Shown piece after piece: positions 1-18,303 of a stretch of DNA of 64,000 bases. The stretch covers positions 15,923 through 79,922 of the forward strand of contig CAVSIZ010000017.1 in NCBI GenBank assembly GCA_963728125.1. The letters run 5' to 3'. A program made the position numbers and the translations under genes. Position 1 is the first letter of the stretch. Each line of letters begins with the position of its first letter. The DNA is from an uncultured Actinomycetota bacterium (GTDB lineage: Bacteria; Actinomycetota; Actinomycetes; CAWDCV01). The notes under the pieces were generated by a model. That model saw only the letters and a program-made list of their open reading frames with translations, did not search any database and was not told the origin of the DNA.

Positions 1-265
1 GTTCGCCTGGTCATGGAGCGACCAGACTGAGTACCACTACCAACCGCGACGGCTACGCAGACCGCTGCACTTCCTCCCGAATGCGGCGATCGTCGGGTTT
101 GACCGACTGGTGCTCGCGCGGCTGTACGGCAACGAGCCGCCCCGCCTCGACCCCGAACTCGCAGCACGACTACGCGCCGTTTACCGCGACGACCTCGGTG
201 TTCTCGAGGAGCTGCTCGGACGCGACTTCAGCAACTGGCAAGCCGTCAGCGATAGCCGGGCGTGA
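1..265 (+). CDS. partial CDS, C-terminal fragment of a protein whose 5' end lies outside the window; hypothetical
   Basis: Open frame runs from the window edge to TGA at 263-265 (...LDPELAARLRAVYRDDLGVLEELLGRDFSNWQAVSDSRA). Amino-acid composition is plausible and it sits convergent with the next gene. No diagnostic motif recognised. Confidence 0.35.
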   Translation, partial: FAWSWSDQTEYHYQPRRLRRPLHFLPNAAIVGFDRLVLARLYGNEPPRLDPELAARLRAVYRDDLGVLEELLGRDFSNWQAVSDSRA

Positions 266-2549: not shown

Positions 2550-3641
2550 ATGTGCACCTCGGAAACGGCGCCCGGGGAGGGGCACGTGGGGGATCGTCTA
2601 CGCGCTGCGCAGACTTACGGGGACGAACTCGATCGATCGACGCCGACATTGGTGGCCGGAGCCGGTGGTTTCATCGGTGGTCATCTTGTCGGTTGGCTGA
2701 ACGCGAAGGGCTTCGAGCGAATTCGAGCGGTCGACGTCAAACCGCTCGAATATTGGTACCAGCGCCATCCCGGTGTAGAGAGTGCGCAACTCGACCTCTC
2801 CACCCTGGACGGTTGCCGCGCGGCTGCCCAAGACATGGGGTACGTGTTCAATCTGGCCGCCGACATGGGCGGGATGGGCTTCATCACTGCCGAACGCGCC
2901 CGGTGCATGCTCACGGTTCTGACAACCACTCATCTGCTGATGGCAGCGAATGATGTCGGCGCTGAACGGTATTTCTACGCCTCCTCCGCCTGCGTGTATC
3001 CGGATTACAAGCAGGACACGTCCAACGTCCAAGCATTGCGTGAAGAGGACGCGTATCCCGCCATGCCCGAGGACGGTTATGGCTGGGAGAAGCTGTTCGG
3101 TGAGCGGCTAGCCAGGCACTTCACCGAGGACTTCGGCCTGAATACCCGGGTCGCGCGCTATCACAACGTCTATGGTCCGTGGGGGACGTACGACGGGGGC
3201 CGCGAGAAGGCGCCGGCCGCAATCTGCCGCAAGGTGGCGCAGGCGGTCATCTCCGGTGTCCCCGAGATCGAGATCTGGGGTGATGGGGAGCAAACCCGCA
3301 GCTTCATGTACGTGGACGACTGCATCGAGGGCACCGTGCGGCTCTTCGCCTCCGATCACGCCACGCCGATCAATATCGGCAGCAGTGAGCTCGTCACCAT
3401 CAACGAGATGGTGTCGATCTGCGAGAGCTTCGCTGACGTGACGCTCAAGCGGACCTACGTGCTCGACGCTCCGCAAGGGGTTCGGGGTCGCAACAGCGAC
3501 AACACCACCATCTCCGCCACGCTCGGGTGGGAGCCGTCCACCTCGCTCGTCGAGGGGCTGGAGATCACCTACCGCTGGATCTACGACCAGCTGGTGTCCG
3601 GCAAGCCCAACCAGCGCGCACCTGCGCTCACATCTGTCTGA
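2550..3641 (+). CDS. NAD-dependent sugar-nucleotide epimerase, GDP-mannose 3,5-epimerase-like
   Basis: Rossmann motif VAGAGGFIGGHL. Signatures DMGGMGFI, YASSACVYP and GGREKAPAAICRK are characteristic of the GDP-mannose 3,5-epimerase family. Its stop overlaps the next start (TGATG at 3641). Confidence 0.75.
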   Translation: MCTSETAPGEGHVGDRLRAAQTYGDELDRSTPTLVAGAGGFIGGHLVGWLNAKGFERIRAVDVKPLEYWYQRHPGVESAQLDLSTLDGCRAAAQDMGYVFNLAADMGGMGFITAERARCMLTVLTTTHLLMAANDVGAERYFYASSACVYPDYKQDTSNVQALREEDAYPAMPEDGYGWEKLFGERLARHFTEDFGLNTRVARYHNVYGPWGTYDGGREKAPAAICRKVAQAVISGVPEIEIWGDGEQTRSFMYVDDCIEGTVRLFASDHATPINIGSSELVTINEMVSICESFADVTLKRTYVLDAPQGVRGRNSDNTTISATLGWEPSTSLVEGLEITYRWIYDQLVSGKPNQRAPALTSV

Positions 3642-4543
3642 TGGGGTTTCGGGCGCACGAGAACGGGGTCGTTCGGCCCGTCATCCTGCTCGGCGCACCT
3701 CGGTCGGGGACGTCGCTCCTCGCCGACATTCTCGGCAGCCACCCGGATGTGGCGCTGTTGCGTGAGCCGCGGCTGGTCTGGCGGTACGGCAACGACGGTC
3801 GCTCCGACCAACTCGGTCCGCAGCACGCCACCCCGAAGGTCGTTGAGCACATCCATCGCTGCTTCGCGGCGGTCCTCACGGAAGAGGGTGCGGATCGGAT
3901 CGTCGAGAAAACGCCGGCCAACTCGGTCCGTCCCCGGTTCGTGGAAGCGGTGTTCCCGGACGCCCGCTACGTCCACATCACGCGCAACGGCTGGGCGACC
4001 GTGCCGGCCATCCGATCGTTCTGGGAGCGGCGCGGCACCGGTCTCGACCGGCGACAGCTGCGCAAGGCGCGCCGACGGTTCTCCGAGGCGAGCCTGCGAC
4101 AGGTGCCTCACTACGCGCTGGAAGCCGCGCGACGGGTGACAAGGAGCCGACGTACCGCGCTGTACGGCCCGCGGCTAGCGGGGATGCAGGACGTGGTCGA
4201 CGAGCTGGGCCGCCTCGAAGCTGCGGCCCAGCAGTGGCGTACCTGCGTCGACCAGGTGACGGTGTTCGGACGCGATGTCGGACCGGGGCGCTACACGGAG
4301 ATCCAGCTCGAGACGCTCGACCTCAAGGTGCTCGAGTCGGTCCTCGACTTCTGCGACCTATCGCGCTCACCGCAGGTCCTCGACCGGTTCACCGAGCGGT
4401 ACCGGCTCGAGGAGGGGACCAGCCGGCAACCGCTCAGCGCCAGCGAAGAAGCAGTCATTGCGCCGTACGTCGAACCGGCCAATGCCTGGCTGGGGTACCC
4501 GGCCGCGAGCCCGTCCCGCCTCGATGACGGCGACCGGCGATGA
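3641..4543 (+). CDS. sulfotransferase family protein (PAPS-dependent)
   Basis: 5'-phosphosulfate-binding loop LLGAPRSGTSLLADIL and an EKTPANS region. Start MGFRAHEN overlaps the upstream stop. Confidence 0.7.
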   Translation: MGFRAHENGVVRPVILLGAPRSGTSLLADILGSHPDVALLREPRLVWRYGNDGRSDQLGPQHATPKVVEHIHRCFAAVLTEEGADRIVEKTPANSVRPRFVEAVFPDARYVHITRNGWATVPAIRSFWERRGTGLDRRQLRKARRRFSEASLRQVPHYALEAARRVTRSRRTALYGPRLAGMQDVVDELGRLEAAAQQWRTCVDQVTVFGRDVGPGRYTEIQLETLDLKVLESVLDFCDLSRSPQVLDRFTERYRLEEGTSRQPLSASEEAVIAPYVEPANAWLGYPAASPSRLDDGDRR

Positions 4544-5463
4544 CGCTCACCGTCGTGTACATCGTCGGCGCCCGAAATTGCGGGTCGACGATGCTGGACG
4601 CCCTGCTGGGCGCGGCACCCGGTGCGCGCAGCCTGGGCGAGGTCGGCGGATTCCAGCGGTACGAGCCGGATCGCCCGTGCGCGTGTCAACAGCCGCAGCC
4701 CTGCGCGGCGTGCACATCCGCCCTCGCCACGATCGAGACGAGGGGATCCTTCGCGGCATACCGGGAGCGCGCCAATGCTCCACTCAAGGAGCGCCGCTTC
4801 TTCTGGGCCCTGTGGCGCACCCCTGGCCGGCGAGCGTACGCACGAGACGCCGACAGCATCTTCGACGCGGTCGCCGCGACCACGGGCAGCCGCATCCTCA
4901 TCGATTCGTCGAAGAACATTTCCCGAGCAGCTGCCCTTGCCGGAGACAGTCGCCACGACATCCGCGTGCTGCATCTCGTCCGCGATGGCCGTGGGGTGCT
5001 GCGGTCGCGCCGTAAGCGCGCCGAAGTCGACGGTCGGCCTTATCGCGAGACTGCTTCGCTGGCCGAGTGGCTCGGGAAGAATCTGATGATCTCCTGGCTG
5101 CTCGCTCGCCGGCTGCCGGCCGACCGCTTCCTCCTCGCCCGCTACGAGGACCTGCTCGCCGATCCCGGGAAGGAGCTGACCAGGATCGGTGCGTTCGCCG
5201 ACCTGGACCTCGCTGCCGTTGTCGAGGCAGCGATGACGACCGGCGTCGAACGACTGCACCTCTTCGAGCCGATGCGCCGCACCGACTACCGGCTGGTCAC
5301 ACTCGACCCCACCCGGCTGGCCGGGCAGCGACAGAGCCCGCGCGAGAACCGCCGCTATTGGCGAGGCGGCGGCTTCCTGTCGGCTCGCTGGGGCTACGAC
5401 AGGGACCAGAGCTACCTCGACCAGCTGCCGACCGCTGTGTCGACAACGAGCTCGACCGGGTGA
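4540..5463 (+). CDS. sulfotransferase family protein (second, divergent paralog) with a Cys-rich insert
   Basis: P-loop-like VGARNCGSTMLDALLG and an LHLVRDGRGV region typical of Stf-type sulfotransferases. Insert CACQQPQPCAAC (CxCx5CxxC). Start ATG overlaps the upstream stop (ATGA at 4540). Confidence 0.65.
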   Translation: MTLTVVYIVGARNCGSTMLDALLGAAPGARSLGEVGGFQRYEPDRPCACQQPQPCAACTSALATIETRGSFAAYRERANAPLKERRFFWALWRTPGRRAYARDADSIFDAVAATTGSRILIDSSKNISRAAALAGDSRHDIRVLHLVRDGRGVLRSRRKRAEVDGRPYRETASLAEWLGKNLMISWLLARRLPADRFLLARYEDLLADPGKELTRIGAFADLDLAAVVEAAMTTGVERLHLFEPMRRTDYRLVTLDPTRLAGQRQSPRENRRYWRGGGFLSARWGYDRDQSYLDQLPTAVSTTSSTG

Positions 5464-5477
5464 CTCGGCGATCAGTC

Positions 5478-6610
5478 ATGCGCGTCGCCCTCGTCCACAA
5501 CTTTCACACGCGGGGCATCCCGAGCGGTGAGGACGTCGTGGTCCTGGCCGAGGCGGCAGCACTGCAGCGCGCCGGCGTCGACGTTCAGATCGTCGGGACC
5601 AGTAACGATGAGATGGCAAAGCAGCCGGCCGCGCCCCTGCGAGCAGCCTGGGCAGTCACCACCGGGATCGGCGTCTCACCTGAGTCTGACCTGCAGCGCT
5701 TCGACCCGGACGTGGTCCACATTCACGGGACGTTTCCGTACCTCGACCGACGCTGGCTGCGTCGGCTGAACGTGCCCATCGTGGTCACGTCGCACAACTA
5801 CCGGCCGATGTGCGCGAACGGCTACCTGTTCCGCGACGGCCACGTCTGCACGCGCTGCCTTGACGGGCAGCCCTGGTCGGGCGTGCGCTACGGCTGCTAC
5901 CGCGGCTCGCGGGTGGCTTCCGTGCCCCTCGCGGTTGGCTCGATGAGGGGAGCAGCCCGCGATCCGGTTTTGCGTGCCGCCGACCGGGTGCTGGCCCTGT
6001 CCGATCGAGCGAAGTCGGTGCTGGTGCGCGCTGGCGTCCCCGAGAATCGACTCGTGCTCGACCACCACTTCCTGCCCGACGACCTCGACGCGGGCGTCAG
6101 CCCCGCGCGCGATGACTCGTGGATCTTCGTCGGGAGGCTGAGCCCGGAAAAGGGCATCGACCGAGCTCATCGCGCAGTGGCCGGACGACGAGCCGCTCCG
6201 AGTGGTCGGCGACGGCGAACTCCGCGCACAACTCGAGCGGGATGCGGCAGCGAAACCGATCCGGTTCCTGGGAAACTTGCCTCGACACGACGTCATCGAC
6301 GCAGGTAAAGGGGTCGTTCGGGGTGATCTTCCCGAGCCGGTGGTACGAGACGTTCGGCCTCGTCTACATCGAGGGGCTGGCCTGTGGCGTGCCGACGGTC
6401 GCGTTCGACCCCAACGTCGTCGCCGATGCCGTCGCACGTGAGGGAACCGGACAGCTTGCTCACTGGGATGCCGTGGGTGATGCCCTGACAGCTGCTCGCG
6501 GTCGCTTCAATGATCTGCGCGCTCACTGCCGGCGCGTCTTCGAGGAGCGCTACACCGAGAAGGCGTTCGTCGAGCGACGACTCGCCCTGTATGCCGGGCT
6601 GATCGAATGA
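5478..6610 (+). pseudogene. GT4 family glycosyltransferase, interrupted by two frameshifts
   Basis: N-terminal part (MRVALVHNF...HNYRPMCANGY...SWIFVGRLSPEKGID) is in frame 0. The middle part (LIAQWPDDEPLRVVGDGELRAQLE...IRFLGNLPRHDV) is in frame +1 from about 6163. The C-terminal EX7E region (GSFGVIFPSRWYETFGLVYIEGLACGVPTV) is in frame +2 from about 6305. Confidence 0.7.
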
Positions 6611-7968
6611 CCATTCAGCTGAGTCCCCGATCGCCCGCAGCCCCGCCCGCCCGACCGGCGCGCGACTCGCGGCGGCTGCCGCTGCTCGCCTTGCTCGTCT
6701 TCCTTGCCGTCCTGCCGCTGGAGTGGATCACCTTCGCCGGCGTGCAGGAGGGATTCGTCAAGCCGTTCCACGTCGCGGCCCTCGTCTTGATCGTCGTGGC
6801 GCTGGCCCGCTGGCGGCCGCGGCGGCTGATCGGGCCCATCCTGAGCCGCTACTCAGTGGTGTACGTCGGGTACACCCTCGCCCTCGCGGCGACGTTCTTC
6901 GGCGGCCTCACCTACGCCGACCCCTACCTGTCGCGCGCTGAGACCTTCCGCAACGGCTTCTACCTGGTCACGTCGGTGGTGATCGCGGGCGTCGTCGTCG
7001 CGTTGATGGCCCGCCCGCCGCGGTCCGGGCTGGCCTGGGCCGGCGTGCTCACCCTGGGCACCCTGCTGTTCGCGCTGGTCACGGCCCTGGCAGCGCAGCG
7101 ACTCAACCCCTTCGCCATCATCGGCGACGCGTTGGTCCAGCAGGATCCTGACATCATCTCCCGCCAATTGCTGCGGACCGCGTTCCGCACCGATGCCGGG
7201 CTCGACGACGCTGCTCCGAACCTGCGCCACAAGGTGTTCGGCGGCCTTCTCGTTGCGGTATTCCTCGGGCTGGCCTGCCGGTCGCTGGTCGACCGACGCC
7301 GCACCGTGCTGCGCACCGTGCTGGCGATTGGTGGTGCAGTGGGCTGCCTGGTGGTCGTGCTCTCGCTCAGCCGCTCGATCACCGTATGCGTCGTCATCAC
7401 GCTAGCCCTGTTTCCGCTGCGCAGCCTGGTGATGAATCGCGTCCGGCCACTGCGGGCTGCCGTGGCCGCGATGATCGTCCTGGTGATTGGCGTGCTAGCC
7501 GTGTCGCCGGTGGGGCAGCTGGTCTTCGCCCGTTTCGGCGAGACAGGGTCGTACGAAGCGCGGCTGCAGGCGGCGGGGCCATCGTTCCTCGAAGAAGCCC
7601 TTCCTGCTGCAGTTGTCGGGACGACCAATACGGCGGTGGAGACGGCCCCGCACAACCAGATCCTGAACGCCTGGCTGGCGGGCGGTGTGATCGCCGCGAT
7701 TGCCGTCGGCCTCATGCTCTTCTTCCTGCTCCGGCTGTGGGTGCAGCTGGCGTTGCGTTACCTCACCGGCCGCCCGGGCTGGGTGCTCCCGGTGAGTCAG
7801 GCCTGGGTGCTCGGCGTCGGAATCATCCCGCTCGTGCGGTCAGTAACGTCCGGCAGCCTGTTTCACATGGTCGAGTGGACGGCCATCGGGATCTTCCTCG
7901 GCGTGCTCCTCGCCAACGAGCGGGCAGCGAGATCGCTCAATGCCGGGCCGGATGGAGGGAGTCGATGA
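6607..7968 (+). CDS. O-antigen ligase / Wzy-like polymerase family integral membrane protein
   Basis: About 10-12 predicted TM helices. Wzy_C-type motifs LSRSITVCVV and ETAPHNQILNAWLAGGVIA (HNxxL). Start overlaps the stop of the upstream GT4. Confidence 0.65.
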   Translation: MTIQLSPRSPAAPPARPARDSRRLPLLALLVFLAVLPLEWITFAGVQEGFVKPFHVAALVLIVVALARWRPRRLIGPILSRYSVVYVGYTLALAATFFGGLTYADPYLSRAETFRNGFYLVTSVVIAGVVVALMARPPRSGLAWAGVLTLGTLLFALVTALAAQRLNPFAIIGDALVQQDPDIISRQLLRTAFRTDAGLDDAAPNLRHKVFGGLLVAVFLGLACRSLVDRRRTVLRTVLAIGGAVGCLVVVLSLSRSITVCVVITLALFPLRSLVMNRVRPLRAAVAAMIVLVIGVLAVSPVGQLVFARFGETGSYEARLQAAGPSFLEEALPAAVVGTTNTAVETAPHNQILNAWLAGGVIAAIAVGLMLFFLLRLWVQLALRYLTGRPGWVLPVSQAWVLGVGIIPLVRSVTSGSLFHMVEWTAIGIFLGVLLANERAARSLNAGPDGGSR

Positions 7969-8534
7969 CGGAGTTGTCGTCGGCTTCGCCTGCAATCGGG
8001 GATCCGCGGAGCACGCCGTTCGAGGTCACGAGCGTGTCGCTGATGTCGTGGCGCGCGATCGCTGACCCTCCCGTGCTGTCGCTCGGCGATCACGAGATAC
8101 GCATCGACACAGGTGTCATGTCTGCCACCTTGGCCTACCGGCCCTGGCCCGGCCTGCCGCCGGCGCTGCCAACCGGCACGTGGAAGGGCGTCCTGCAGAG
8201 CCTCGACGCCGTGCCGGATCACAGGGAAGCCGGTGCCGGGCTGCTGCGCTTCGGCTTCCTCGGCGCACCGCTGCACACGGCGCTGCATCAGGTCGTGGAT
8301 ACGAGTGCGCTGGACATGTCGTACTGCTCGATTCACCGGCATCCCGACGAGGGCGAGTTCAACCTCATGCTGCCGGCCGAGAACGCGACGTTGGACTACG
8401 AGGTGTACGAGACCACCTGGACCACTGTCCGCGCGCCGACGCAGCTGTGGTTCTCGCGCGGTGTCGCCCACGGCGCGAGGGCGGTATCGGGAATCGGATT
8501 CTTCTTTGTCCTCCGATTGCCCGAGGATCCTTAG
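7965..8534 (+). CDS. hypothetical soluble protein
   Basis: 189 aa ORF starting MTELSSASPAIG, with ATGA overlap to the upstream stop. Composition is balanced rather than Arg/Ala/Pro-biased. No motif recognised. Confidence 0.4.
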   Translation: MTELSSASPAIGDPRSTPFEVTSVSLMSWRAIADPPVLSLGDHEIRIDTGVMSATLAYRPWPGLPPALPTGTWKGVLQSLDAVPDHREAGAGLLRFGFLGAPLHTALHQVVDTSALDMSYCSIHRHPDEGEFNLMLPAENATLDYEVYETTWTTVRAPTQLWFSRGVAHGARAVSGIGFFFVLRLPEDP

Positions 8535-10339
8535 CTCTTCCCCGATACATGCTCCAAGCGCGCGAGCTCGACCAACCGCGCGAACTCCGGCTCCACGTCG
8601 CACAGCGTCGCGAACGTTCCGACCGACGCGATCTGCCCGTCGCGGAGGAAGAAGATGCGGTCGCAATGCCGCAGCGTGCTGAGCCGGTGGGACACCGTGA
8701 TGATGGTCAGCTGCCCGCGCAGGTCGGCGATGGTCTCCATGATCTTCGCCTCGGTGCTCGAGTCGAGCGATGACGTCGCCTCGTCGAGTATGAGCACGGC
8801 GGGATGGTGATAGAGCGCTCGGGCAAGCCCGATGCGTTGCCGCTGGCCCCCCGACAGCCGCACACCGTGCTCTCCCACGACGGTGCTGAGACTGTCAGGC
8901 AAGGAGGCGATGAAACCGTCGACCTGGGCGAGGCGTAGCGCGTCCCACACTCTCTCGTCGTCGATCTTGTCGCCCGCGATCCCAAAGGCGACGTTGGCGC
9001 GGATGTCATCGTCGATCAGGACGATCTCCTGTGGCACATAGCCAATGGACCGCTGCCACGCCGTCCGGCATTCGGCGATCGGCGTGCCGGAGATCTCCAC
9101 CGCACCGGACGTGGCATTGAGCAGACCGAGGAGGATCGACAGCAACGTCGTCTTCCCGGCGCCGGTGCTCCCAACGATGGCAACGTCGTCGCCGTACCGG
9201 ATGAGCAGCGACACGTTCCGCAGCACATCGGGCAGGTTCGGCTCGTACCTGAACCGCACGTCCTTCATCTCGATGGTGGCCGCGCTGACCTGCTCGGCGT
9301 CGACCTCGTCGGGGGCCAGTGAGTACTGACCAAGCTCCCGCAGATCGTCCATCACCTGATTGATCGCCGGCGTGGCCGTCCGCGCGACCGTGGATGCGCC
9401 CATCACGCGGTTGAGCGGCGCGGCGAGACGGAAGCTGACGGTGAGGAAGAGGGCGATGCTCGCCAGCGCCTCGGTCGGCGAGCGGGTGAGGAACGCGAAC
9501 GCCGACACGACTGCGGCACCGAAAACCAGGGCCAGGTCGAGGAACTGGCGGGGCAGCAGCTGGAAGAACACCAGCAACTCCTGCGAGTGGGCCAGCTCCA
9601 CCTTCGTCCGGTAGAAGTTGCCGACGAAGTGATCGTGCCGGTGCAGCACCGCGAGTTCCTTCGCAGCGCGCAATGCCTCCTGCACCTGCTTGTACCGCGT
9701 TGCCGTGTCGGCGTGGGCCCGCCGAGCGGCCAGCTTGTTCCTGCCACCGATCCAACGCTGGTAGATCACCGCCACCAGCAGGAAATAGCCACAGGCAATC
9801 AGCGCGATATCGGGATCGCTGATCAGCACCACCAGCGCCACAGCAGCGAGGGTGAATGCGTCGGCCGCGGCAGCCAGGACGTAGGGCACCCCCCGACGGA
9901 ACGTCGTCAGCAGGGACTCGTTGAGAGTGCGCTGGAATTCACTCGTGTTGTGCGCGAGGTGATAGGTCACGGGCGCGGCGAGGTAGCCGGCGAACAATCG
10001 AGTCGAAATCCGCGTGTCCTCCTGCAGCGAGACGCGGATTCCCCACCGAAGCAGGGAGATCGCGGCAACCGCCTTCACGCTCAGTGCCACGACCACGATG
10101 AGCGCCAAGATGATCGTCACCTGGTTGCGCGACTCGACGTCGAACACATTGGCAATGGCATTGGCGACCGGTGGAAAGTCTCGGCCCCGATTGAGCAGCA
10201 TTTCCGTCAGCGGAACGATGAGATACAGGCTCACCCCCTCCAGTGCGGCGACCAGTATCGAACCGATGGCGAACGCGATGAAGCGTCGCCGGGCGTACCG
10301 ATCCAGCACGCTGAAGGTGCCGCGAAGAAAGGGAATCAC
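8531..10339 (-). CDS. ABC exporter with fused permease and ATP-binding domains (type I exporter)
   Basis: Six N-terminal TM helices. Walker A GSTGAGKTTLLSILLG, ABC signature LSGGQRQRIGLARAL and Walker B VLILDEATSSLD. Confidence 0.85.
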   Translation of the reverse strand: MIPFLRGTFSVLDRYARRRFIAFAIGSILVAALEGVSLYLIVPLTEMLLNRGRDFPPVANAIANVFDVESRNQVTIILALIVVVALSVKAVAAISLLRWGIRVSLQEDTRISTRLFAGYLAAPVTYHLAHNTSEFQRTLNESLLTTFRRGVPYVLAAAADAFTLAAVALVVLISDPDIALIACGYFLLVAVIYQRWIGGRNKLAARRAHADTATRYKQVQEALRAAKELAVLHRHDHFVGNFYRTKVELAHSQELLVFFQLLPRQFLDLALVFGAAVVSAFAFLTRSPTEALASIALFLTVSFRLAAPLNRVMGASTVARTATPAINQVMDDLRELGQYSLAPDEVDAEQVSAATIEMKDVRFRYEPNLPDVLRNVSLLIRYGDDVAIVGSTGAGKTTLLSILLGLLNATSGAVEISGTPIAECRTAWQRSIGYVPQEIVLIDDDIRANVAFGIAGDKIDDERVWDALRLAQVDGFIASLPDSLSTVVGEHGVRLSGGQRQRIGLARALYHHPAVLILDEATSSLDSSTEAKIMETIADLRGQLTIITVSHRLSTLRHCDRIFFLRDGQIASVGTFATLCDVEPEFARLVELARLEHVSGKS

Positions 10340-10347
10340 GCCGCGTC

Positions 10348-11550
10348 CTATGCCTGCACGGCTCTGGACAGAACCGTCTCGAAACGACCTGCGATCCTAT
10401 CGATATCAAATGCCCACTCTGCGTAGCGGCGGGCATTCTCACCGTGGAAACAGCGCAGGCTCTCATCGGAGACGAGCTTCTCCGCGGCCGCCAAGAAGCC
10501 TTCCCGGTCGTCGGTGGCAACCACAACGCCGGCGTTCGCCTGGTCGAGCGTGCGCGCCGCCAGGTTCATGGGCGGGATGGCGGCGAGAATCGGTCGCCGC
10601 GCGCACAGGTAGCTGAGGACCTTGGACGGCACCGAGAACACGCCCGCGTCAGGTGACAGGAGAGCAATTAGCACATCGGCGGAACCGAAGACCTCGGGCA
10701 GCTGCTCGTACGGCTGGTAGGGCAGGACGTGCAGGTTGCCGACGCCGTGCTCGGCGACCTGCTCCTCGAGCCATTCCGCGCCCGCGCCCTCGGAGACGAC
10801 GACCACGCGTACGTCGCCTCGGGGCTCGAACCGGCGCGCGAGGTCGAGCAGCAGGCTGGGATCGTGCTTCAGGCCGAGGGTCCCGGCGTATAGCAGCACC
10901 GTGTCGCCGGAAAGGCCCGCAGCTCGTGACCACGGGTTGTCGTGCGGGTGCGGCGGCAGCTCGTCGAGTGGCGCCCAGTTCTCGATGACCTCACACTGCT
11001 CCGGCGGGATGCGCATCGAGCGCAGGACCGGGTCGAAGTCGTCCGTGATCGACACCACGGCAGCGGTTTGGCGAAGCAGCGACGACTCCAGCGCGCGAAG
11101 CCCCGTGCCGATGGTTGCGCCGACGCGCCCCAGCTTGTTGGTGGCGTACCGCGTCATCGCCACGCTGTACACGTCCTGCAGCCAGAACACCCACGGCGTG
11201 CGGCTGACACGACACCATGCTGCTGACACCGTCTTGGCGACGAGGGGATCGTTGGACGACAAGATCACGTCCGGCTGGTGCCTGCGCGCAGCGCGGACGA
11301 AGCGGGCGCCGTAGCGCAGCTCCTGCGGAATCCGGCGGTGAACCGTGTAGCGATTGAAGACGGTGTCGAGGCTGATCGACTCGAAGGACAGCGACGGCGG
11401 GTCGTCGTCCTGCCACGACAGCGCTCCCTTACCGCTTTGGTACGAGTCGCAGTGGACGTGGCAGACGTCGTGACCTCGCCGGGCAAGCGCTCGACTCAGC
11501 TGTGCCTGGAAGGGATGCCCGGAGAAGTCATGGACGAGAATCCGCATCAC
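10348..11550 (-). CDS. GT4 glycosyltransferase, WcaI/WbuB-like
   Basis: N-terminus MRILVHDFSGHPFQAQLSRALARRGHDV is typical of WcaI-like GT4 enzymes. C-terminal GT4 domain with an EX7E-type region. Confidence 0.8.
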   Translation of the reverse strand: MMRILVHDFSGHPFQAQLSRALARRGHDVCHVHCDSYQSGKGALSWQDDDPPSLSFESISLDTVFNRYTVHRRIPQELRYGARFVRAARRHQPDVILSSNDPLVAKTVSAAWCRVSRTPWVFWLQDVYSVAMTRYATNKLGRVGATIGTGLRALESSLLRQTAAVVSITDDFDPVLRSMRIPPEQCEVIENWAPLDELPPHPHDNPWSRAAGLSGDTVLLYAGTLGLKHDPSLLLDLARRFEPRGDVRVVVVSEGAGAEWLEEQVAEHGVGNLHVLPYQPYEQLPEVFGSADVLIALLSPDAGVFSVPSKVLSYLCARRPILAAIPPMNLAARTLDQANAGVVVATDDREGFLAAAEKLVSDESLRCFHGENARRYAEWAFDIDRIAGRFETVLSRAVQA

Positions 11551-13367
11551 TTCTCCGGCCGAGAGGACGACTCGGCCGTGGTGCGTTCGAGCTCGGGTGG
11601 CGCCTTTGCTGCCTTCCCCCCGTTGATCCCGTTGAGGCTCACCCGAGGAATGGCGACCTTGGCCGCCCCGATCTTCGGGCGGCTGTCCTCGTAGGGAGCA
11701 GCCACCGAGCGCGAGCTGACACCGTTCAGGACCGCGCCCAACATGGGCGCCCTGGCGTCCCTCAGCAGATCCATGGCCGCATTGATGTGCGATGTCCTGG
11801 TACGACCCGAACGCGCGACCAGCACCACGCCGTCCACCATCTGGGCGAGCAGGACGCCGTCGGACACAGGCAGCAGCGGTGGGCCGTCGATGATGAGGTA
11901 GTCGACCTCGCGCGCGAGGGTGTTGAGCACCTCCTGCATCGCCGATCCCGACAGCAGCGATGCCGGGTCGGCGACGGGTGGTCCCGCGGTCAGCACCGCC
12001 AGCGTGGGATACAGCGACTGCACCGCATCGCTGAGCGACGCGCTACCGGACAGCACCGAACTGAGGCCGATGTCATTGGAGATGCTGAAGACTTCGTACA
12101 GCCACGGCCGGCGTAGGTTGCCGTCGATGACGACGACGGTGCAATCGGCTGCCGCCAGCGTCACGGCGAGGTTCGCCGCCGTCATCGTCCGACCATCGCG
12201 GGCGTCGGCGCTGGCGATCAGCATCTCGCCCGTACCGCTCTCGCCCAAGGCGAGCTGGACGGACGTGCGTAGGCGGCGGAACGCCTCGACCGCTGTCGGC
12301 GAGCCGGGCAGCTCGGCCACGACGCCGGCGCCACGCTCCATTCCGCGAACGCGCGGCAGCATGCCAATCACCGGGACGCCGGACGCGGCCTCGAAGGACT
12401 GCTTGGAGACCAGCCGGTCGTCGAAGTGCTCGCGGACGAAGGCGATAACGAGTCCGAGCAGGAAACCAAGCCCTGCGCCGGCAACGGCGAAGCCGACGCG
12501 TCCGGGACCGCCCAATTTCTCCGGCTCCGACGCCGGCCCGAGCACCTGCACCCCGAACGTCGGGTTCACCGTCTGAGCCAGCCTGAGGAGGTCCAGCCGC
12601 TCGATCAGGGTGGTGCGCCGGCTGTTGAGGCTGTCCCGCTGCGTGATCAACTGCTGGCGCTGGTTCTCGAGGCCATTGCGGATCACGGAGTCGTACGTCA
12701 CTCCGATCTCCGCGTCGAACTCCGCGATCGGTGTCGCCAGCTCGTTGATCTGCGTGTCGATCGCGGCGATGTCGTTCTGTACCTGTGTGGTGCCGGCTGC
12801 CATCAGCGCTGCGAGCTGACCCTGCCGCAGCTGCACGTAGGTTTCCGCGTACGCCTGCGCGTCCTGCTGCACTTGCTCGGGGTTCTCGCCCTCGACCGTC
12901 AGGCGGCTCACCCGCGAATCGGGATCGGTTTCGATCGCGACCTCGACGTCGTGGCCCACCCGATTGCGGACCTCGGTCCGCACCGCTTCTGAGCCCATCA
13001 CGGCGACCTCGGTCGCGGTCTCGGACGCTCCCGCACCTTCGCCCCCGACCGCCAGGACGCTCGCGGGTGACGTCACCTGGGCGATCACTTCCGCGGTGGA
13101 GGTGTACGTGGCGGGAGTCATCCCACCGATCAGGATGCCGAGTGCCAGGCCGATCAGCGTCGGAATCGCGATGGCGAGCGGGCGGCGCCGGACCACCGAC
13201 AGGTAGTGCCGCAGCTCATACCCGTCGCGATCGGGGTCGACATCCGCCGCCCGCCGAACTCCTGAATCGGCAGTGGCGGGAACCGATGAGTCATTCATGC
13301 CGTCGTTGCCTCTCCCCCGACTCCCCGGAGTGTCCCCGAGAGGCCCCAGGAAGCGCGAACCCCTCAC
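11547..13367 (-). CDS. polysaccharide co-polymerase / Wzc-like protein (Wzz domain plus CpsD-like ATPase domain with degenerate Walker A)
   Basis: N-terminal TM and chain-length-determinant region with a coiled coil. C-terminal domain has Walker A' VVVIDGNLRRP and Walker B DYLIIDGPPLL. The Walker A position reads ASADARDGRTMTAANLA, with Lys replaced by Arg. No C-terminal tyrosine cluster. Confidence 0.65.
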   Translation of the reverse strand: MRGSRFLGPLGDTPGSRGRGNDGMNDSSVPATADSGVRRAADVDPDRDGYELRHYLSVVRRRPLAIAIPTLIGLALGILIGGMTPATYTSTAEVIAQVTSPASVLAVGGEGAGASETATEVAVMGSEAVRTEVRNRVGHDVEVAIETDPDSRVSRLTVEGENPEQVQQDAQAYAETYVQLRQGQLAALMAAGTTQVQNDIAAIDTQINELATPIAEFDAEIGVTYDSVIRNGLENQRQQLITQRDSLNSRRTTLIERLDLLRLAQTVNPTFGVQVLGPASEPEKLGGPGRVGFAVAGAGLGFLLGLVIAFVREHFDDRLVSKQSFEAASGVPVIGMLPRVRGMERGAGVVAELPGSPTAVEAFRRLRTSVQLALGESGTGEMLIASADARDGRTMTAANLAVTLAAADCTVVVIDGNLRRPWLYEVFSISNDIGLSSVLSGSASLSDAVQSLYPTLAVLTAGPPVADPASLLSGSAMQEVLNTLAREVDYLIIDGPPLLPVSDGVLLAQMVDGVVLVARSGRTRTSHINAAMDLLRDARAPMLGAVLNGVSSRSVAAPYEDSRPKIGAAKVAIPRVSLNGINGGKAAKAPPELERTTAESSSRPEK

Positions 13368-13677: not shown

Positions 13678-14619
13678 CTATGACATCCCCGCTGACGCTG
13701 ACATCCCCGCTGACGCGTTCAGCCGACTGCTGCCGACAACACTGTCGGTGCGCACGAGGGTATCGAGCCATGACGCCAAGGTGTCCACCGCAAGGCCCTG
13801 CGTCGACACCTCGTGCATTCCACCGAGCCGCGCGTCCACGACGCTTACGGTGAGCAGGTCGCCAGCCGAGTCGGCGATCTTGCCCATCGCACCGGCGCGG
13901 ACGCGCGCGAACTCCGGGTAGAAGTCGTCCGCGCTGCCGTACAGAAAGAGCACCGGGACGCCCCTGCGCAGCGCGGATTGCAGCGCCTCGAGGAACCCCG
14001 GGCTGGCCCCGCCCGGCGACCGCGGCGGACGCGAACCGGTCAGGATGCGGGTCAGCTTGCGCAGCAGGGCCCGGCGCACCTTTCCAGTGGCTTTCCAGGC
14101 GATCGCCACATTCTGCCGGCGCAGCGTTGCCGCCTTCTTGACGTACCACGACAGCGGCCGGCTGAGGATGGCTTCCTGATGGGTCACGTCGCTCACCGGG
14201 GGCGCGATCAGGGCGAGGCCGACGAGCCCATCGACCTGATCCGCAATGGCCATGCCGTTGCGCGCCCCCCAGCACTGGCCGATCATCGCGATCTGGCGAT
14301 GCCCCTGCGACTCCAGCCAGCGGATCGCGCCGAGCGCGTCGTCGGTCCACGGCTTGTCGAACTCGACCTCGCGCATGCTGCCGCTGCTCTCGGCCACGCC
14401 CTGATAGTTGACACGAAGGACCGAGAACCCGCGATCGGCAAGCTCCAGCGCCAACCGCCGGCGCATCTGGTTCTTGCCGAACGTCGGGTCGGTGCCACCG
14501 CCGGCGAGCAGGAGCACGCTCACCCCGTTCGGACGTCCCGACGGCTCGGTGAAGACGCCGAAGAGCTCTTCGGAGCCCGCCGGGAAGAACACCGGGGTGT
14601 TCATCACGGTCCTCCCCAC
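13678..14619 (-). CDS. alpha/beta-hydrolase fold protein with Cys nucleophile (GxCxG), paralog 1
   Basis: Nucleophile elbow MIGQCWGA. Putative acid GSADDF and His GGMHEV. C-terminal SAGMSASAGMS is encoded by an 18-bp tandem duplication. Confidence 0.6.
   Translation of the reverse strand: MGRTVMNTPVFFPAGSEELFGVFTEPSGRPNGVSVLLLAGGGTDPTFGKNQMRRRLALELADRGFSVLRVNYQGVAESSGSMREVEFDKPWTDDALGAIRWLESQGHRQIAMIGQCWGARNGMAIADQVDGLVGLALIAPPVSDVTHQEAILSRPLSWYVKKAATLRRQNVAIAWKATGKVRRALLRKLTRILTGSRPPRSPGGASPGFLEALQSALRRGVPVLFLYGSADDFYPEFARVRAGAMGKIADSAGDLLTVSVVDARLGGMHEVSTQGLAVDTLASWLDTLVRTDSVVGSSRLNASAGMSASAGMS
13681..13716. repeat. perfect 18-bp tandem duplication (TGACATCCCCGCTGACGC x2) at the 3' end of alpha/beta-hydrolase paralog 1
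   Basis: Read directly in the sequence. It encodes the C-terminal SAGMS-A-SAGMS and lies 11 nt upstream of the ACP start. Confidence 0.8.
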
Positions 14620-15521
14620 ATCAGGTGGGCTGTGTCAAGCGAATGTCCGGGACCGTACCCCAGATCTCTGGATACCAAGAAAGCGAAAAGGGCATGTCGC
14701 TCGCCAGCATCCGGGGAAATTCTGCCGAACTCGTGTGCGTCGCGTTCGGCGGATACGGCTGGGATTGTGCCAGCGCACGCTATTGCGCGGGCATACTGAA
14801 CGGCGCCGCTCGTCAACGAGACAGATACGTCGCGGCGGACATTCGGCTCGCAAGCGAATTGTTGGGCGGTCGACGAAATGTTCCGATACGCCACCTCGAC
14901 GCGAAGCCTCCCGCGCTCGACGTTGATGGTGGTGAGCGTGACGTCCCAGGTGCCGTCGTTCTTGATGGGGCGATCGACGACGTAGGTCCCTGGAGCGATG
15001 CGATCAGCCACGGTGCTCGCTGGCGAGGGGCTCGTCAACGACGCGCTGGTGGCTGGGCTGGCAGCTACCGAGGCGTCTCGCTCGGAGTCGTCTTGCGACG
15101 TGACGAGGAAGAACCCCGCGAGCAGGAAGCTCGCCACGACGAGGGCAACGACAAAGACCCGGCGACGCCGATGTTTGCGGCGCTGCGTGTTCCGTTCCGC
15201 TGCCTGCTCGTGCAATGCCTGACGTAGCTTCGCTTCACGTTCACCGGCGAGCCTGAGCTGCGCCTCGCGCGCGCGGGCCTGGTCTTCGCGAGCCTGATCC
15301 GGCTCCTTGGTGAGAACCCGGTAGGCCTCGTTCACCTGACGCAGGTGGCGCTCCGCCTCCTCGATGACCTTGGTGGGGGCGGATTGGTGCCGATCCGGAT
15401 GCAGCAGGTTGGCAAGGACGCGGTAGCGGTCACGGATCTCGGCCTGCGACGCCCCAGGCGCCACCCCGAGCACGGCGTAGGGATCGAAGCGTGGCTGGGG
15501 CATGGTGGGGATGCGTGCCAC
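14604..15521 (-). CDS. J-domain (DnaJ-like) single-pass membrane protein
   Basis: J domain DPYAVLGVAPGASQAEIRDRYRVLANLLHPDRH with an HPD motif. Charged coiled-coil linker. TM helix FVVALVVASFLLAGFFLV. Extracytoplasmic domain of about 160 aa. Confidence 0.65.
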   Translation of the reverse strand: MARIPTMPQPRFDPYAVLGVAPGASQAEIRDRYRVLANLLHPDRHQSAPTKVIEEAERHLRQVNEAYRVLTKEPDQAREDQARAREAQLRLAGEREAKLRQALHEQAAERNTQRRKHRRRRVFVVALVVASFLLAGFFLVTSQDDSERDASVAASPATSASLTSPSPASTVADRIAPGTYVVDRPIKNDGTWDVTLTTINVERGRLRVEVAYRNISSTAQQFACEPNVRRDVSVSLTSGAVQYARAIACAGTIPAVSAERDAHEFGRISPDAGERHALFAFLVSRDLGYGPGHSLDTAHLMWGGP

Positions 15522-15558
15522 TTACGACCGGGAGCTCGTCGGGATCCGGATGCGATCC

Positions 15559-16464
15559 TCAGCCGACTGCTCGCCCTCCCCGGCGGGAATGTCCAACGTG
15601 GCGAATCCACGCCAGCACCGTGCGCAGAAAGGTTTCCTGCACGGCGACCGAGCCGAGCCCGTCGAGGCGACCATCGACGACCTCGACGGCCACCTGCGCG
15701 GACCGCCGATCGATCGCGCGACCGAGCGCATCGTCGCGTGCCCGGTCGAACTGGGACGCGAAGTCGTCATCGAGTCCGTACAGGAACAGCACCGGCGTCC
15801 CCGAGTCGAGGACATGCTCGACCTGCGGGAGGAACCGTCGCGGCGGTGTGCCCGCCCGGCCGCGGCGGCCGAGCAGAACCCGCCGGAGCTTCCCCCTGAG
15901 CACAGCCCGGCGCCGCTTCGCCTTCTCGCCGCGGACGAGGAGCAGCAACGAGCGGGGCGACGTCAGCCGTCGCAAGTACCACGACAGCGGTGAATCGAGG
16001 ACCCCCTCGCGATGCCCTCCGTCGCCCAGCGGGCACGACACCAGGGCCAACCCGGCGAGCGCGCCTACCTGGGGAGCGGCGGCGAGCGCTGCGCGACCGC
16101 CGGCGCACAAGCCGATCACGACGATGCGCTGGAAGCCGCGGGACTCGAGCCAGCGCAGGGCGGCGACGGTGTCGTCGACCCACTCGTTGCCGATATCGGG
16201 GTCGCGGACCAGGCCGCCGCTCTCGCCGACGCCGGTGTAGCTGAAGCGCAGTGCGTGGAAGCCGCGCGCGGCCAGCTCGCGGGACAGCCGTACCCGGGCC
16301 TGGTTCTTCCCGAACGCCGGCACGCCCCCGCCGCCCCACAGGCTCAACACCGCGGCGCCGTTGGCGTTGCCGTTCGGGGCGGTGAGGATGCCGACCAGGT
16401 CCTCGTCAGTCACGTCCGTCGCCGGAATGACGACAGGCGTCTCATTGCTAGACGTGATGGTCAT
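15559..16464 (-). CDS. alpha/beta-hydrolase fold protein, paralog 2 (Cys elbow retained, His not evident)
   Basis: Elbow VIGLCAGG and acid GLDDDF. Clear paralog of 13678-14619. Start ATG at 16462-16464 overlaps the stop of paralog 3 (ATGA). Confidence 0.55.
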   Translation of the reverse strand: MTITSSNETPVVIPATDVTDEDLVGILTAPNGNANGAAVLSLWGGGGVPAFGKNQARVRLSRELAARGFHALRFSYTGVGESGGLVRDPDIGNEWVDDTVAALRWLESRGFQRIVVIGLCAGGRAALAAAPQVGALAGLALVSCPLGDGGHREGVLDSPLSWYLRRLTSPRSLLLLVRGEKAKRRRAVLRGKLRRVLLGRRGRAGTPPRRFLPQVEHVLDSGTPVLFLYGLDDDFASQFDRARDDALGRAIDRRSAQVAVEVVDGRLDGLGSVAVQETFLRTVLAWIRHVGHSRRGGRAVG

Positions 16465-17345
16465 CGACCGGTTCCCGAACCGTTGAGGCGACTCGCCAAC
16501 CACGTCGCTACCTGCTCATTCAACTCCGGATGCAGGACGACCTTCGGTCCGGACCGGAACCACCAGCTCTCCTCGACGTCGACGATGCTGGTGTCGACGG
16601 ACGCACCATTCGCGCGTAGCCGTTCGACGATGGCCCGGTGATCGGGACGGAGCTCACGGCCTTGGAACTGCACGAGCAGGACATCGCCAGAGATGTCATC
16701 GAACTCGGCCAGGGCATCGTGCTCGATCACGCTGTCGTACAGGGAGGCATGGATGACATTGCCGACTACATCAGCCCAGCCCTGAGCAGAGAGCACGTCC
16801 TGCAGCTTCTGTTTCTTGCCGACGGCACTGTCGCTTGCGGTGAGGGCACTCATCGCCCGACTGCGCCATGCCTCGCGAAAGTACCGACGAAAGTCCGTGA
16901 CCGGCTCGACGAGCACCATGGGGGGGCGTTCGTCTGCCCGCGCCCGGGCCGCAGAGGCGGCCGCTAGCGCACCCCAGCGCATGCCGACGAAGCCCATGGG
17001 AACGTCGCCGGCAGAGGCAGCGAGCAGCTGCGTTGCCCACGCGGCGTCGTCCTCGAGGGTCCGCAGGGTCATCTGGCCCGGGTCGCCGTCGCTATCTCCC
17101 ATGCCGGACGGGTGATAGCGCAACGTCATCAGCCCGGCCTCGGAGAGCCGGCGCGCGAGGTAGACCTCGCGTTGATAGTTGGAGACGAAGTCGGCCAGCA
17201 CCGACGAGAAGAGCGCGACGGCGCCCACCGCGGTGCTGCGCGGTTCATGGAGACACGTGAAGAGCGAGACGTCGTCGTCGCGTGCGACGAAGGCAATGCG
17301 TTCGCGCGTGCCAGAGGTGCGATCCGTACGCACACAGTCAGGCAT
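16461..17345 (-). CDS. alpha/beta-hydrolase fold protein, paralog 3 (nucleophile position Cys replaced by Arg)
   Basis: Elbow reads FVGMRWGA instead of GxCxG. Start likely at MPDCVRTD; the ORF could extend to 17417. Confidence 0.5.
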   Translation of the reverse strand: MPDCVRTDRTSGTRERIAFVARDDDVSLFTCLHEPRSTAVGAVALFSSVLADFVSNYQREVYLARRLSEAGLMTLRYHPSGMGDSDGDPGQMTLRTLEDDAAWATQLLAASAGDVPMGFVGMRWGALAAASAARARADERPPMVLVEPVTDFRRYFREAWRSRAMSALTASDSAVGKKQKLQDVLSAQGWADVVGNVIHASLYDSVIEHDALAEFDDISGDVLLVQFQGRELRPDHRAIVERLRANGASVDTSIVDVEESWWFRSGPKVVLHPELNEQVATWLASRLNGSGTGR

Positions 17346-17478
17346 AACCCCCCCTGCAGTTGGTGCACCGTAACCGACACACGGGGGCTCTGCCCCCCGT
17401 GTTCCCCCCGACCCCAAAACCTACCCACGGCTGGTTGCCCCACGTAGGGAATCGGGCCTGCGATAGCCTCAATTCGGG
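17346..17478. promoter_or_regulatory. divergent intergenic region between alpha/beta-hydrolase paralog 3 (-) and DAHP synthase (+), containing a 9-bp-stem hairpin at about 17379-17402
   Basis: Perfect inverted repeat ACACGGGGG / CCCCCGTGT with a short loop. GGGGAGGGGAAG RBS-like stretch lies before the DAHPS start. Confidence 0.3.
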
Positions 17479-18303
17479 TTGGGGAGGGGAAGCCTAGTGA
17501 GCCCGAAATTGATCGAGCACGCTCAGGCACGCGTCGAAGTCGGGGGAATTGCGCTGGGGAGCGCCCACCCGATCCGCGTGATCGCCGGACCGTGCTCCGT
17601 GGAGAGCTTGGAGCAATTCCGCACGACGGCGCAGGCCGTGCACGCGGCCGGCGCTGTACTGCTGCGTGGCGGCGCATTCAAACCGCGAACCTCGCCGTAC
17701 AGCTTTCAGGGGCTCGGCGTCCGCGGCCTGGAGATCATGCGCGAGGTGGCGGACGAGCTCGGGATGGGCGTCGCCACCGAGGCCATGTCGGCGGAGGAGG
17801 TGGTCCTCGTCGCGCGCTACGCCGACATGGTGCAGATCGGCGCGCGAAACATGGACAATCGGCCGCTGCTCGAGGCCGCTGCCGCATCGGGACGACCGAT
17901 CCTGTTGAAGCGAGGAATCACCGCCACCGTCGAGGAAGTCCTCACGGCGGCGGAATACATCGTGGTCCGCGGCAACGACCAGGTAGTGATCTGCGAGCGC
18001 GGCAGTCGGACATTCGAACCGTCCACCAGGAACAGTCTCGACATCGCTGCGGTGTCCGAGCTGAAACTGCGCAGCGACCTGCCGGTCATCGTCGATCCTT
18101 CTCATGGCACCGGTGTTCGCGACCTGGTCGCGCCGGTCGCTCTCGCCGGCATCGCCGCTGGCGCCGACGGCGTGATGGTCGAGGTACATCCGCAGCCCGA
18201 TGCCGCGCTGTCCGATGGCTTCCAGTCCCTCGAGGCGGCCACCTTCCCTGCCTTCATGAGTCGCGTGCGAGCGATGGCGATGGCCATGGGGAGGGCGGTG
18301 TAG
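17479..18303 (+). CDS. 3-deoxy-7-phosphoheptulonate (DAHP) synthase, class I beta (AroG/AroA-type, no chorismate-mutase domain)
   Basis: All catalytic and metal motifs present: [37 protein letters not shown] and MVEVHPQPD. Confidence 0.85.

Follow-up and report, generated by a model that had tools for sequence, protein, structure and literature searches.

Among bacteria, sulfated polysaccharides have been called essentially confined to cyanobacteria (PMC8205485, PMC13390465). The nearest characterised system to the one described here is the synechan (xss) cluster of Synechocystis sp. PCC 6803, which carries several glycosyltransferases (GTs), a polymerase, a co-polymerase and two sulfotransferases (STs) of distinct subfamilies (PMC8205485), and for which sulfation of the product was shown chemically (Maeda et al. 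2021, PMC8205485). Nowhere in their text do these authors mention 3′-phosphoadenosine-5′-phosphosulfate (PAPS), cysC or adenosine-5′-phosphosulfate (APS) kinase, and they describe no PAPS-supply genes for xss. The nearest actinomycete case is wps-1 of Actinoplanes missouriensis, a Wzx/Wzy-type cluster with two STs of different families (PMC13390465). Deletion of the adjacent AMIS_7390 (sulfate adenylyltransferase/APS kinase family) gave the same phenotype, and production of a sulfated polysaccharide by actinomycetes is proposed there without chemical proof (Appl Environ Microbiol 2026, PMC13390465). Here, a locus of the same kind is described from an uncultured Actinomycetota bacterium, in a 64,000 nt stretch of contig CAVSIZ010000017.1 (assembly GCA_963728125.1, positions 15,923 to 79,922; hereafter the window), where two adjacent sulfotransferase genes, ST-A and ST-B, share a neighbourhood with the sulfate-activation genes cysQ, cysD and cysN.

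The likeness to xss is one of gene content, and wps-1 is likewise compared by its described gene content. The xss cluster is cyanobacterial and plasmid-borne, has two STs where the present locus has four, and encodes a Wzx flippase in place of an ABC exporter. The wps-1 cluster also has two STs rather than four, with Gal/GlcNAc-type and heparan-sulfate-type domains, and no cysDN/cysQ operon is described for it. The present locus thus sets itself apart by its four STs and an explicit PAPS cycle. As pieced together, it covers about 35 kb and has PAPS cycle genes at both ends; these enclose four STs, GTs, a polymerase-like membrane protein, an ABC exporter and a co-polymerase with a tyrosine kinase. 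It probably directs the synthesis of a sulfated extracellular polysaccharide, with ST-A and ST-B as two of four PAPS-dependent STs. Both the kinase missing from the window and the seeming distance of the STs from their PAPS supply very likely result from the place of the cut. The placement of cysQDN inside a polysaccharide operon is best explained by a sulfated product of the cluster.

Sulfate activation is genetically or functionally linked to STs for sulfated surface or secreted molecules in rhizobia (nodPQ/NodH), Xanthomonas (raxPQ/RaxST) and M. tuberculosis (cysDNC/cysQ/Stf0). In NodQ, RaxQ and the M. tuberculosis CysNC, CysN is fused to CysC, and the acceptors are a lipo-oligosaccharide, a peptide and trehalose. 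The CysN of the present locus is unfused and so not of the NodQ/CysNC type, its kinase is fused instead to a sulfurylase-like domain and lies about 27 kb from cysN, and the predicted product is a Wzy-type polymer.

ORF families were called by Pfam and NCBIfam profiles against curated cut-offs, and about 60 open reading frames (ORFs) of the window were scanned in this way (Table 1). An earlier note on this DNA had pointed out two back-to-back, divergent ST-family ORFs with P-loop-like motifs, and this description held up. ST-A and ST-B are co-directional with a 4-nt overlap, and both lie well above the gathering cut-off of 27 for PF13469 (Sulfotransfer_3), at 75.5 and 59.3 bits; ST-B also passes PF00685 (22.8 bits versus a cut-off of 22). 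The 5′-phosphosulfate-binding (5′-PSB) motif is GAPRSGTS in ST-A (aa 18–25, nt 3692–3715) and GARNCGST in ST-B (aa 10–17, nt 4567–4590). The corresponding 3′-phosphate-binding (3′-PB) motifs are HITRNG (nt 3974–3991) and VRDGRG (nt 4978–4995), and ST-B has a DSSK motif as well. Residues G18, R21, G23, T24, E89, K90 and R115 are invariant in an alignment of 47 ST-A family sequences, as are G15, T17, S123, S124 and R148 in 45 sequences of the ST-B family. D149, R151 and S156 of ST-B (VRDGRGxxxS) are present in at least 90% of the 45 sequences and are invariant among close orthologs. The 3′-phosphate motif, the absence of which would have spoken against PAPS use, is therefore retained in both families, with its arginine (R115 or R148) unchanged throughout.

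AlphaFold2 models of the two proteins are of high confidence (mean predicted local distance difference test scores of 91.9 for ST-A and 90.5 for ST-B), and all of their top fold matches in the Protein Data Bank (PDB) are PAP(S)-binding STs, with a Foldseek probability of 1.00 and TM-scores of only 0.45–0.6. The best matches of ST-A are TPST2 with bound PAP (3′-phosphoadenosine-5′-phosphate), the OLS/CurM STs, Stf1/Stf9 and 3-OST; those of ST-B are the CurM ST, TPST1/2 and the OLS ST. By motifs, profile matches and predicted fold, both proteins are assigned as PAPS-dependent STs. The suggestion that they may not need PAPS is disfavoured because both carry the PAPS-binding motifs and fold, and PAPS-independent (arylsulfate-type) sulfotransfer was rejected on the same grounds.

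The two STs are strongly divergent, a pairwise BLASTP giving a best E of 0.013 confined to the surroundings of the P-loop. Each has its own ortholog series, at 50–76% identity and on the same contigs. A recent tandem duplication was rejected, the pair being barely alignable and belonging to separate series. Both genes are intact in every contig examined, and in several of these the proteins are identical to those of the window. The earlier note had drawn an analogy to mycobacterial sulfated glycolipids. A sequence search of the PDB for kinship to the Stf enzymes returned only an E of 0.04 to Stf9 (2z6v) for ST-A and no match for ST-B; the likeness of either protein to Stf1/Stf9 is at the level of fold (E about 1e-5 to 1e-6). 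Judged by sequence against the Stf structures in the PDB, ST-A and ST-B appear to fall outside the mycobacterial Stf set, and a Wzy-type sulfated exopolysaccharide seems the stronger analogy.

Just past its P-loop, ST-B has an insertion with the pattern CxCx5Cx2C (aa 47–58, nt 4678–4713). C47 is invariant in the 45 sequences, and all four cysteines are invariant among close orthologs. The insertion may form a metal site, and we know of no ST with a described Cys4 site like it.

Sister contigs were found by exact-protein look-up in the European Nucleotide Archive (ENA; ERZ25039576, ERZ25039591, ERZ25039541 and ERZ25039565). Three of the four aligned to the window at about 99.3% identity and were colinear over the first 14.8–15.5 kb. 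Loci L002 (the same as L005 and L013), L003 and L006 (the same as L015), from ERZ25039576, ERZ25039591 and ERZ25039565, are conspecific with the window; L002 and L003 are among the aligned contigs, and L006 encodes proteins identical to the 705-aa protein and ST-A of the window. Two less similar loci are L008, from another species but drawn from one of the same samples (76% identity for ST-A, 68% for ST-B and about 70% overall), and L016, the closest GTDB species representative (93% identical). The window itself has a G+C content of 64–70% and carries actinobacterial housekeeping genes (a glmU-prs-rplY-pth block, ppc, metG, ksgA, ispE and an RpfB-like gene). The host is an uncultured soil actinomycete; the 90%-identity clusters that hold proteins identical to those of the window have named members labelled as Acidothermales or Actinomycetes bacteria.

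Position 1 of the window corresponds to position 5462 of L002 and falls inside ST4, the frame-2 translation of nt 2–265 being identical to the C-terminus of the L002 protein. To the left of this point, L002, L003 and L006 have a gene for an ATP-sulfurylase-like domain joined to an APS kinase, followed by ST3 and ST4. The kinase gene is co-directional and tightly packed with ST3-ST4 and ends about 1.5 kb before base 1; it was found in all three conspecific contigs that reach its site, while the fourth contig ends too early. Full-length ST4 matches both Sulfotransfer_3 and Sulfotransfer_1 and has the motifs GAQRAASS and LRDPVQRAVS. ST3 is of the Sulfotransfer_1 type, with the motifs PKSGMTW and VRDGRDVALS. 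The claim that the cluster has no APS kinase is correct for the 64 kb, where a tblastn search with E. coli CysC over all six frames gave a best E of 2.4, so that no kinase is hidden in another frame of the window. It is not supported for the cluster as a whole, and neither is the conclusion that the kinase must be encoded elsewhere, given its position just past the left edge in the three conspecific contigs and its presence in the approximately 70% identical relative L008. The window opens inside ST4, and its edge very likely accounts for the apparent lack of an APS kinase.

E. coli CysC aligns to L002 at 3370–3939 with 43% identity (E 3e-38). The 461-aa product of the conspecific contigs matches PF01583 (E 7e-53) and PUA_2 (E 2e-16), has the P-loop GLSGSGKST, and finds its best PDB match in 3CR8, the two-domain APS kinase of T. 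denitrificans (E 4e-76). On these matches it is assigned to the two-domain APS kinases of the T. denitrificans/E. histolytica type. Its N-terminal domain scores 23.2 bits against the ATP-sulfurylase profile, under the cut-off of 24.3, and reads LTHAPDHDFI at the site where fungal ATP sulfurylase has QTRNPMHRAH (QxRNPxHRAH). This domain is degenerate and probably inactive, in which case CysDN would still be required to make APS. The sulfurylase-like domain of 3CR8 is described as catalytically inactive (Gay, Segel & Fisher 2009, as cited in PMC13213808). Both proteins combine an N-terminal ATP-sulfurylase-like domain that lacks the catalytic motifs with an active-looking APS kinase (P-loop GLSGxGKST), whereas the domain in the present gene is shorter (about 230 versus about 360 residues) and more degenerate. 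A CysN of the same 90% cluster is encoded on the 88,850-bp contig of L002, with cysQDN about 27 kb from the kinase; among the CysN homologs listed, a link to an ST cluster was seen only on this conspecific contig.

The flank upstream of the kinase varies. L003 has an insertion sequence (rve transposase) and a GT2 gene, L002 has genes for a dTDP-sugar isomerase and a DegT aminotransferase, and L006 has unrelated ORFs. A left flank that is different in each contig suggests a recombination hot spot. In L016, Wzz/kinase/Wzy_C-like genes take the place of the APS kinase.

The sulfate-activation genes of the window lie 20.5 kb from ST-B (measured to cysN) and are flanked by two polyprenyl-phosphate glycosylphosphotransferases (PGT1 and PGT2), an arrangement that the earlier note had described correctly. 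All four assignments exceed their curated cut-offs: TIGR02034 for CysN (572.2 versus 336.1 bits), TIGR02039 for CysD (428.9 versus 396.6 bits) and TIGR03025 for PGT1 and PGT2 (400.6 and 391.4 versus 295.55 bits). CysN covers positions 23–432 of the 632-position bifunctional CysN/CysC model and stops at residue 423, confirming that it is the GTPase without CysC. Its closest homologs are also stand-alone proteins (412–439 aa) without PF01583. PGT2 and cysQ are separated by 4 nt, and cysQ, cysD and cysN are joined by overlaps (TAGTG at the cysD stop/cysN start), so that the run is translationally coupled.

The same genes could be read as a housekeeping pair, in which CysD-CysN serves cysteine synthesis via APS reductase, a route that needs no APS kinase, and its polysaccharide neighbourhood is incidental or reflects a dual role. 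CysN has the look of a vertically inherited, single-copy gene, as its stand-alone homologs are 76–87% identical and include cultured Jiangella, Pseudokineococcus and Phytoactinopolyspora. Against this, it is coupled, together with cysD, to a priming glycosylphosphotransferase and a CysQ-like PAP phosphatase, and the scanned ORFs of the window include no cysH, no sulfite reductase and no cysteine synthase. In another actinomycete with a CysN 80% identical to that of the window (L023/L024), the order at the same chromosomal site is glmU-prs-rplY-pth-PGT-cysQ-cysD-cysN-APS kinase-TauE, in which the block runs straight into an APS kinase and TauE and so represents a PAPS-making rather than an assimilatory set. 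A purely or partly housekeeping role is the most durable of the alternatives and is considered unlikely.

The APS kinase of L023/L024 (440 aa) is 48% identical to that of L008. The simplest history would be that an ancestral PGT-cysQ-cysD-cysN-cysC-tauE module was split in the lineage of the window, with polysaccharide genes inserted or rearranged, which would leave cysQDN at one end of the locus and the kinase at the other. A gene for a TauE/SafE-family membrane protein directly follows the APS kinase in L008 (2026–2532) and L023 (12610–13599), and does not do so in the conspecific contigs; its product could be a sulfate or sulfo-compound transporter of the PAPS module.

Conservation of the module was assessed in eight other loci with an ST-B relative at least 54% identical, all from uncultured genomes and labelled as Acidimicrobiales, Egibacteraceae, Nocardioidaceae, Actinomycetota and, in one case, "Deltaproteobacteria". 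A scan of genome collections for close ST-B orthologs gave six loci only, all in metagenome-assembled genomes (MAGs) and none in a cultured organism. ST-A is directly upstream of ST-B in all eight loci, and ST4 was detected in each of them. The epimerase is found in seven (not L019), ST3 in six (not L017 or L018) and the 453-aa membrane protein in six. The epimerase gene directly precedes ST-A in L008, L011, L016, L017 and L018, whereas L009 and L020 have it at another place in the locus. Wherever gene calls were inspected, ST-B is followed by a GT4 gene, and in four loci the membrane protein gene comes directly after the GT4. The order in L008, APS kinase-TauE-PPTase-ST3-ST4-beta-helix-epimerase-STA-STB-GT4-membrane protein-ABC-GT4-Wzz-hydrolase-DnaJ, is that of the window together with the part that the window misses. 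The idea that the cluster product carries sulfate at two positions, or that two substrates are sulfated, therefore stands as far as a sulfated product is concerned, and undercounts the enzymes, as four ST genes travel together.

These neighbours also bear on what is sulfated. ST-A and ST-B could act on a tyrosine of a secreted peptide or protein (RaxST/TPST-like), on a glycolipid (like the mycobacterial Stf enzymes) or on the product of an aminobenzoate-type pathway. Their best matches among solved structures are tyrosylprotein STs and the CurM/OLS polyketide STs, with Stf1 and Stf9 as well, and the locus also contains genes for 3-deoxy-D-arabino-heptulosonate-7-phosphate (DAHP) synthases, an aryl-CoA ligase, PabAB and a PabC-like protein. 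The structural matches are distant, however (14–24% identity), and reflect a shared fold. The genes conserved alongside the ST pair across the eight loci are the epimerase, ST3, ST4 and the Wzy-like protein, with a GT4 after ST-B wherever gene calls were inspected; the aromatic-pathway genes are not conserved with it, and no candidate gene for a sulfated peptide was seen. Such other targets are improbable.

The pathway predicted for the sulfated polysaccharide would run as follows. CysD-CysN, identified by family, would convert sulfate to APS, and the two-domain pseudo-sulfurylase/APS kinase, present in the conspecific contigs and expected in the genome of the window, would convert APS to PAPS. 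A priming glycosylphosphotransferase and GT4 enzymes would assemble a lipid-linked repeat unit, with the epimerase supplying or modifying a sugar. ST-A, ST-B, ST3 and ST4 would each sulfate a different position, as suggested by how far the four differ from one another and by their being conserved together, and the CysQ-like phosphatase would clear the inhibitory by-product PAP. The ABC exporter, the Wzy-like membrane protein and the Wzz/tyrosine-kinase protein would then flip, polymerise and export the polymer.

A broader and more tentative proposal is that uncultured soil Actinomycetota (Acidothermales-like, Acidimicrobiales, Egibacteraceae and others) might make a polysulfated, glycosaminoglycan-like exopolysaccharide with up to four sulfates per repeat unit, supplied in some lineages by a PAPS cycle of its own (CysDN, pseudo-sulfurylase-APS kinase and CysQ), with the Cys4 insertion of ST-B as a previously undescribed feature. 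If so, this would be a sulfated-polysaccharide system outside the cyanobacteria; a conserved four-ST module with PAPS genes in MAGs of soil actinomycetes would strengthen the case for non-cyanobacterial sulfated polymers, and it would provide a defined set of enzymes with which sulfated glycans could be made.

Several observations weigh against a sulfated exopolysaccharide as the product, or against parts of the proposed pathway. The polymer is a prediction from gene content. The 5′-PSB of ST-B has Asn where Lys or Arg is usual, a trait of the ST-B subfamily, and the ST-A of the window has Ala at a position of the 3′-PB, eight residues past R115, where the family consensus is Ser. The CysQ-like protein scores 102.7 bits against TIGR01331, under the equivalog-level cut-off of 228.8; its role is supported by its maintained placement between PGT and cysD in L023/L024. 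The cysDN pair may be the sole copy in the genome and also serve cysteine synthesis. The kinase at the left flank was read in conspecific contigs and is extrapolated to the genome of the window. It is within 10 kb of the ST pair in L008 and the conspecific contigs only, and not in six other loci. L016 has no kinase at the site, where homology stops exactly at the kinase 3′ end and leaves its last 17 codons, indicating that the kinase is not fixed at this position. The 453-aa membrane protein has no Pfam or NCBIfam match even at E 1, and its candidacy as a Wzy-type polymerase comes from its position. Finally, frameshifts interrupt several genes of the window and of related contigs.

The frameshifts could mean that the locus is decaying and makes no product. 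Relative to L002, the GT4 gene of the window has two 1-nt insertions (at 6160 and 6299). A gene of the benzoate-CoA-ligase family (AMP-binding) is divided between two overlapping ORFs in different frames (19497–21501, with a frameshift near 20300–20420), one matching profile positions 8–105 and the other 154–384. The kinase and ST3 are split in both L002 and L003. The sites vary from contig to contig, however, those of the kinase lying in the P-loop in L003, near the C-terminus in L006 and between the domains in L002, and for each affected gene an intact copy exists in one or more of the conspecific contigs or close relatives: GT4 (376 aa) in L002, L004 and L006, ST3 (278 aa) in L016, and the kinase in L008, with a nearly intact copy in L006. 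The differing sites and intact copies point to long-read assembly errors, and decay, which would also have to have spared ST-A and ST-B in every contig, is very improbable.

Further 1-nt indels were noted at 8412 and 14770. None of the four indels of the window, including those at 6160 and 6299, falls within a homopolymer; in three of them the additional base is an A that follows a G, and in two of these it follows CG.

Table 1. Positions in the window of sulfotransferase, sulfate-activation and polysaccharide genes.
Feature	Position (nt)	Strand	Evidence or remark
ST4, 3′ end (last 87 codons; full gene 310 aa)	2–265	+	cut by window edge
Beta-helix (pectate-lyase-like) protein, 705 aa, N-terminal hydrophobic segment	246–2363	-	PF12708, E 2.6e-28
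NAD-dependent sugar epimerase/dehydratase, first gene of epimerase-STA-STB-GT4-membrane protein operon	2550–3641	+	PF01370, E 1.2e-38
ST-A, PAPS-type sulfotransferase, 300 aa	3641–4543	+	PF13469, E 9.4e-21
ST-B, PAPS-type sulfotransferase, 307 aa	4540–5463	+	PF13469, E 8.6e-16; PF00685
GT4 glycosyltransferase, frame broken in window	5478–6610	+	N- and C-terminal GT4 domains in different frames
Multi-pass membrane protein, 453 aa, candidate Wzy-type polymerase	6607–7968	+	about 10–11 hydrophobic segments
ABC exporter, fused transmembrane and nucleotide-binding domains (TMD-NBD; HepA/PglK/MsbA-like), candidate flippase/exporter	8531–10339	-	PF00005, PF00664
Second GT4 glycosyltransferase	10348–11550	-	Glyco_transf_4, Glycos_transf_1
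Wzz-type co-polymerase fused to tyrosine autokinase (PCP2/BY-kinase)	11547–13367	-	TIGR01007
PGT1, polyprenyl-phosphate glycosylphosphotransferase, downstream of cysN	24399–25853	-	TIGR03025; Bac_transf, E 4.6e-65
cysN, ATP sulfurylase GTPase subunit, 423 aa, no APS-kinase domain	25988–27259	-	TIGR02034
cysD, adenylyltransferase subunit	27259–28167	-	TIGR02039
CysQ-like inositol-monophosphatase-family protein, candidate PAP (3′,5′-bisphosphate) phosphatase	28164–28934	-	PF00459, E 1.5e-34
PGT2, first gene of PGT2-cysQ-cysD-cysN operon	28939–30354	-	TIGR03025

The genes surrounding the STs have several features of a Wzx/Wzy-type exopolysaccharide cluster, with priming PGTs, GT4 genes and a co-polymerase/tyrosine kinase all present (Table 1). 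Start and stop codons overlap at the epimerase/ST-A, ST-A/ST-B and GT4/membrane protein junctions. The Wzz/tyrosine-kinase protein scores 132.5 bits against TIGR01007 (cut-off 108) and has Wzz and ParA-type matches too. No Wzx flippase was found in the window, where a PglK/HepA-like ABC exporter is present instead; it matches the NCBIfam families HepA_fam_ABC (E 7.6e-72) and PglK (E 4.6e-65), both under their curated cut-offs. The 705-aa beta-helix protein, which may act on the polymer as a glycanase or epimerase, is kept at the same position in L008 and L016.

At window positions 8513–8532, the conspecific contigs L003 (13975–14666) and L004 carry a 692-bp insertion with a gene for a HicB-family antitoxin. 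It is lacking in the window and in L002, and the ABC transporter of L002 is longer (657 aa). Three alpha/beta-hydrolase genes and a gene for a DnaJ-domain protein adjoin the Wzz/tyrosine-kinase gene (13678–17417), and L008 has a hydrolase and DnaJ there. Between the two halves of the locus (17479–24546) are two DAHP synthases, the aryl-CoA ligase, a fused PabA/PabB (745 aa) and a PabC-like class IV aminotransferase. The PabA/PabB aminodeoxychorismate synthase and PabC-like genes are co-directional with PGT1, and this aromatic-acid set could be the source of an aminobenzoyl substituent or of an unrelated metabolite.

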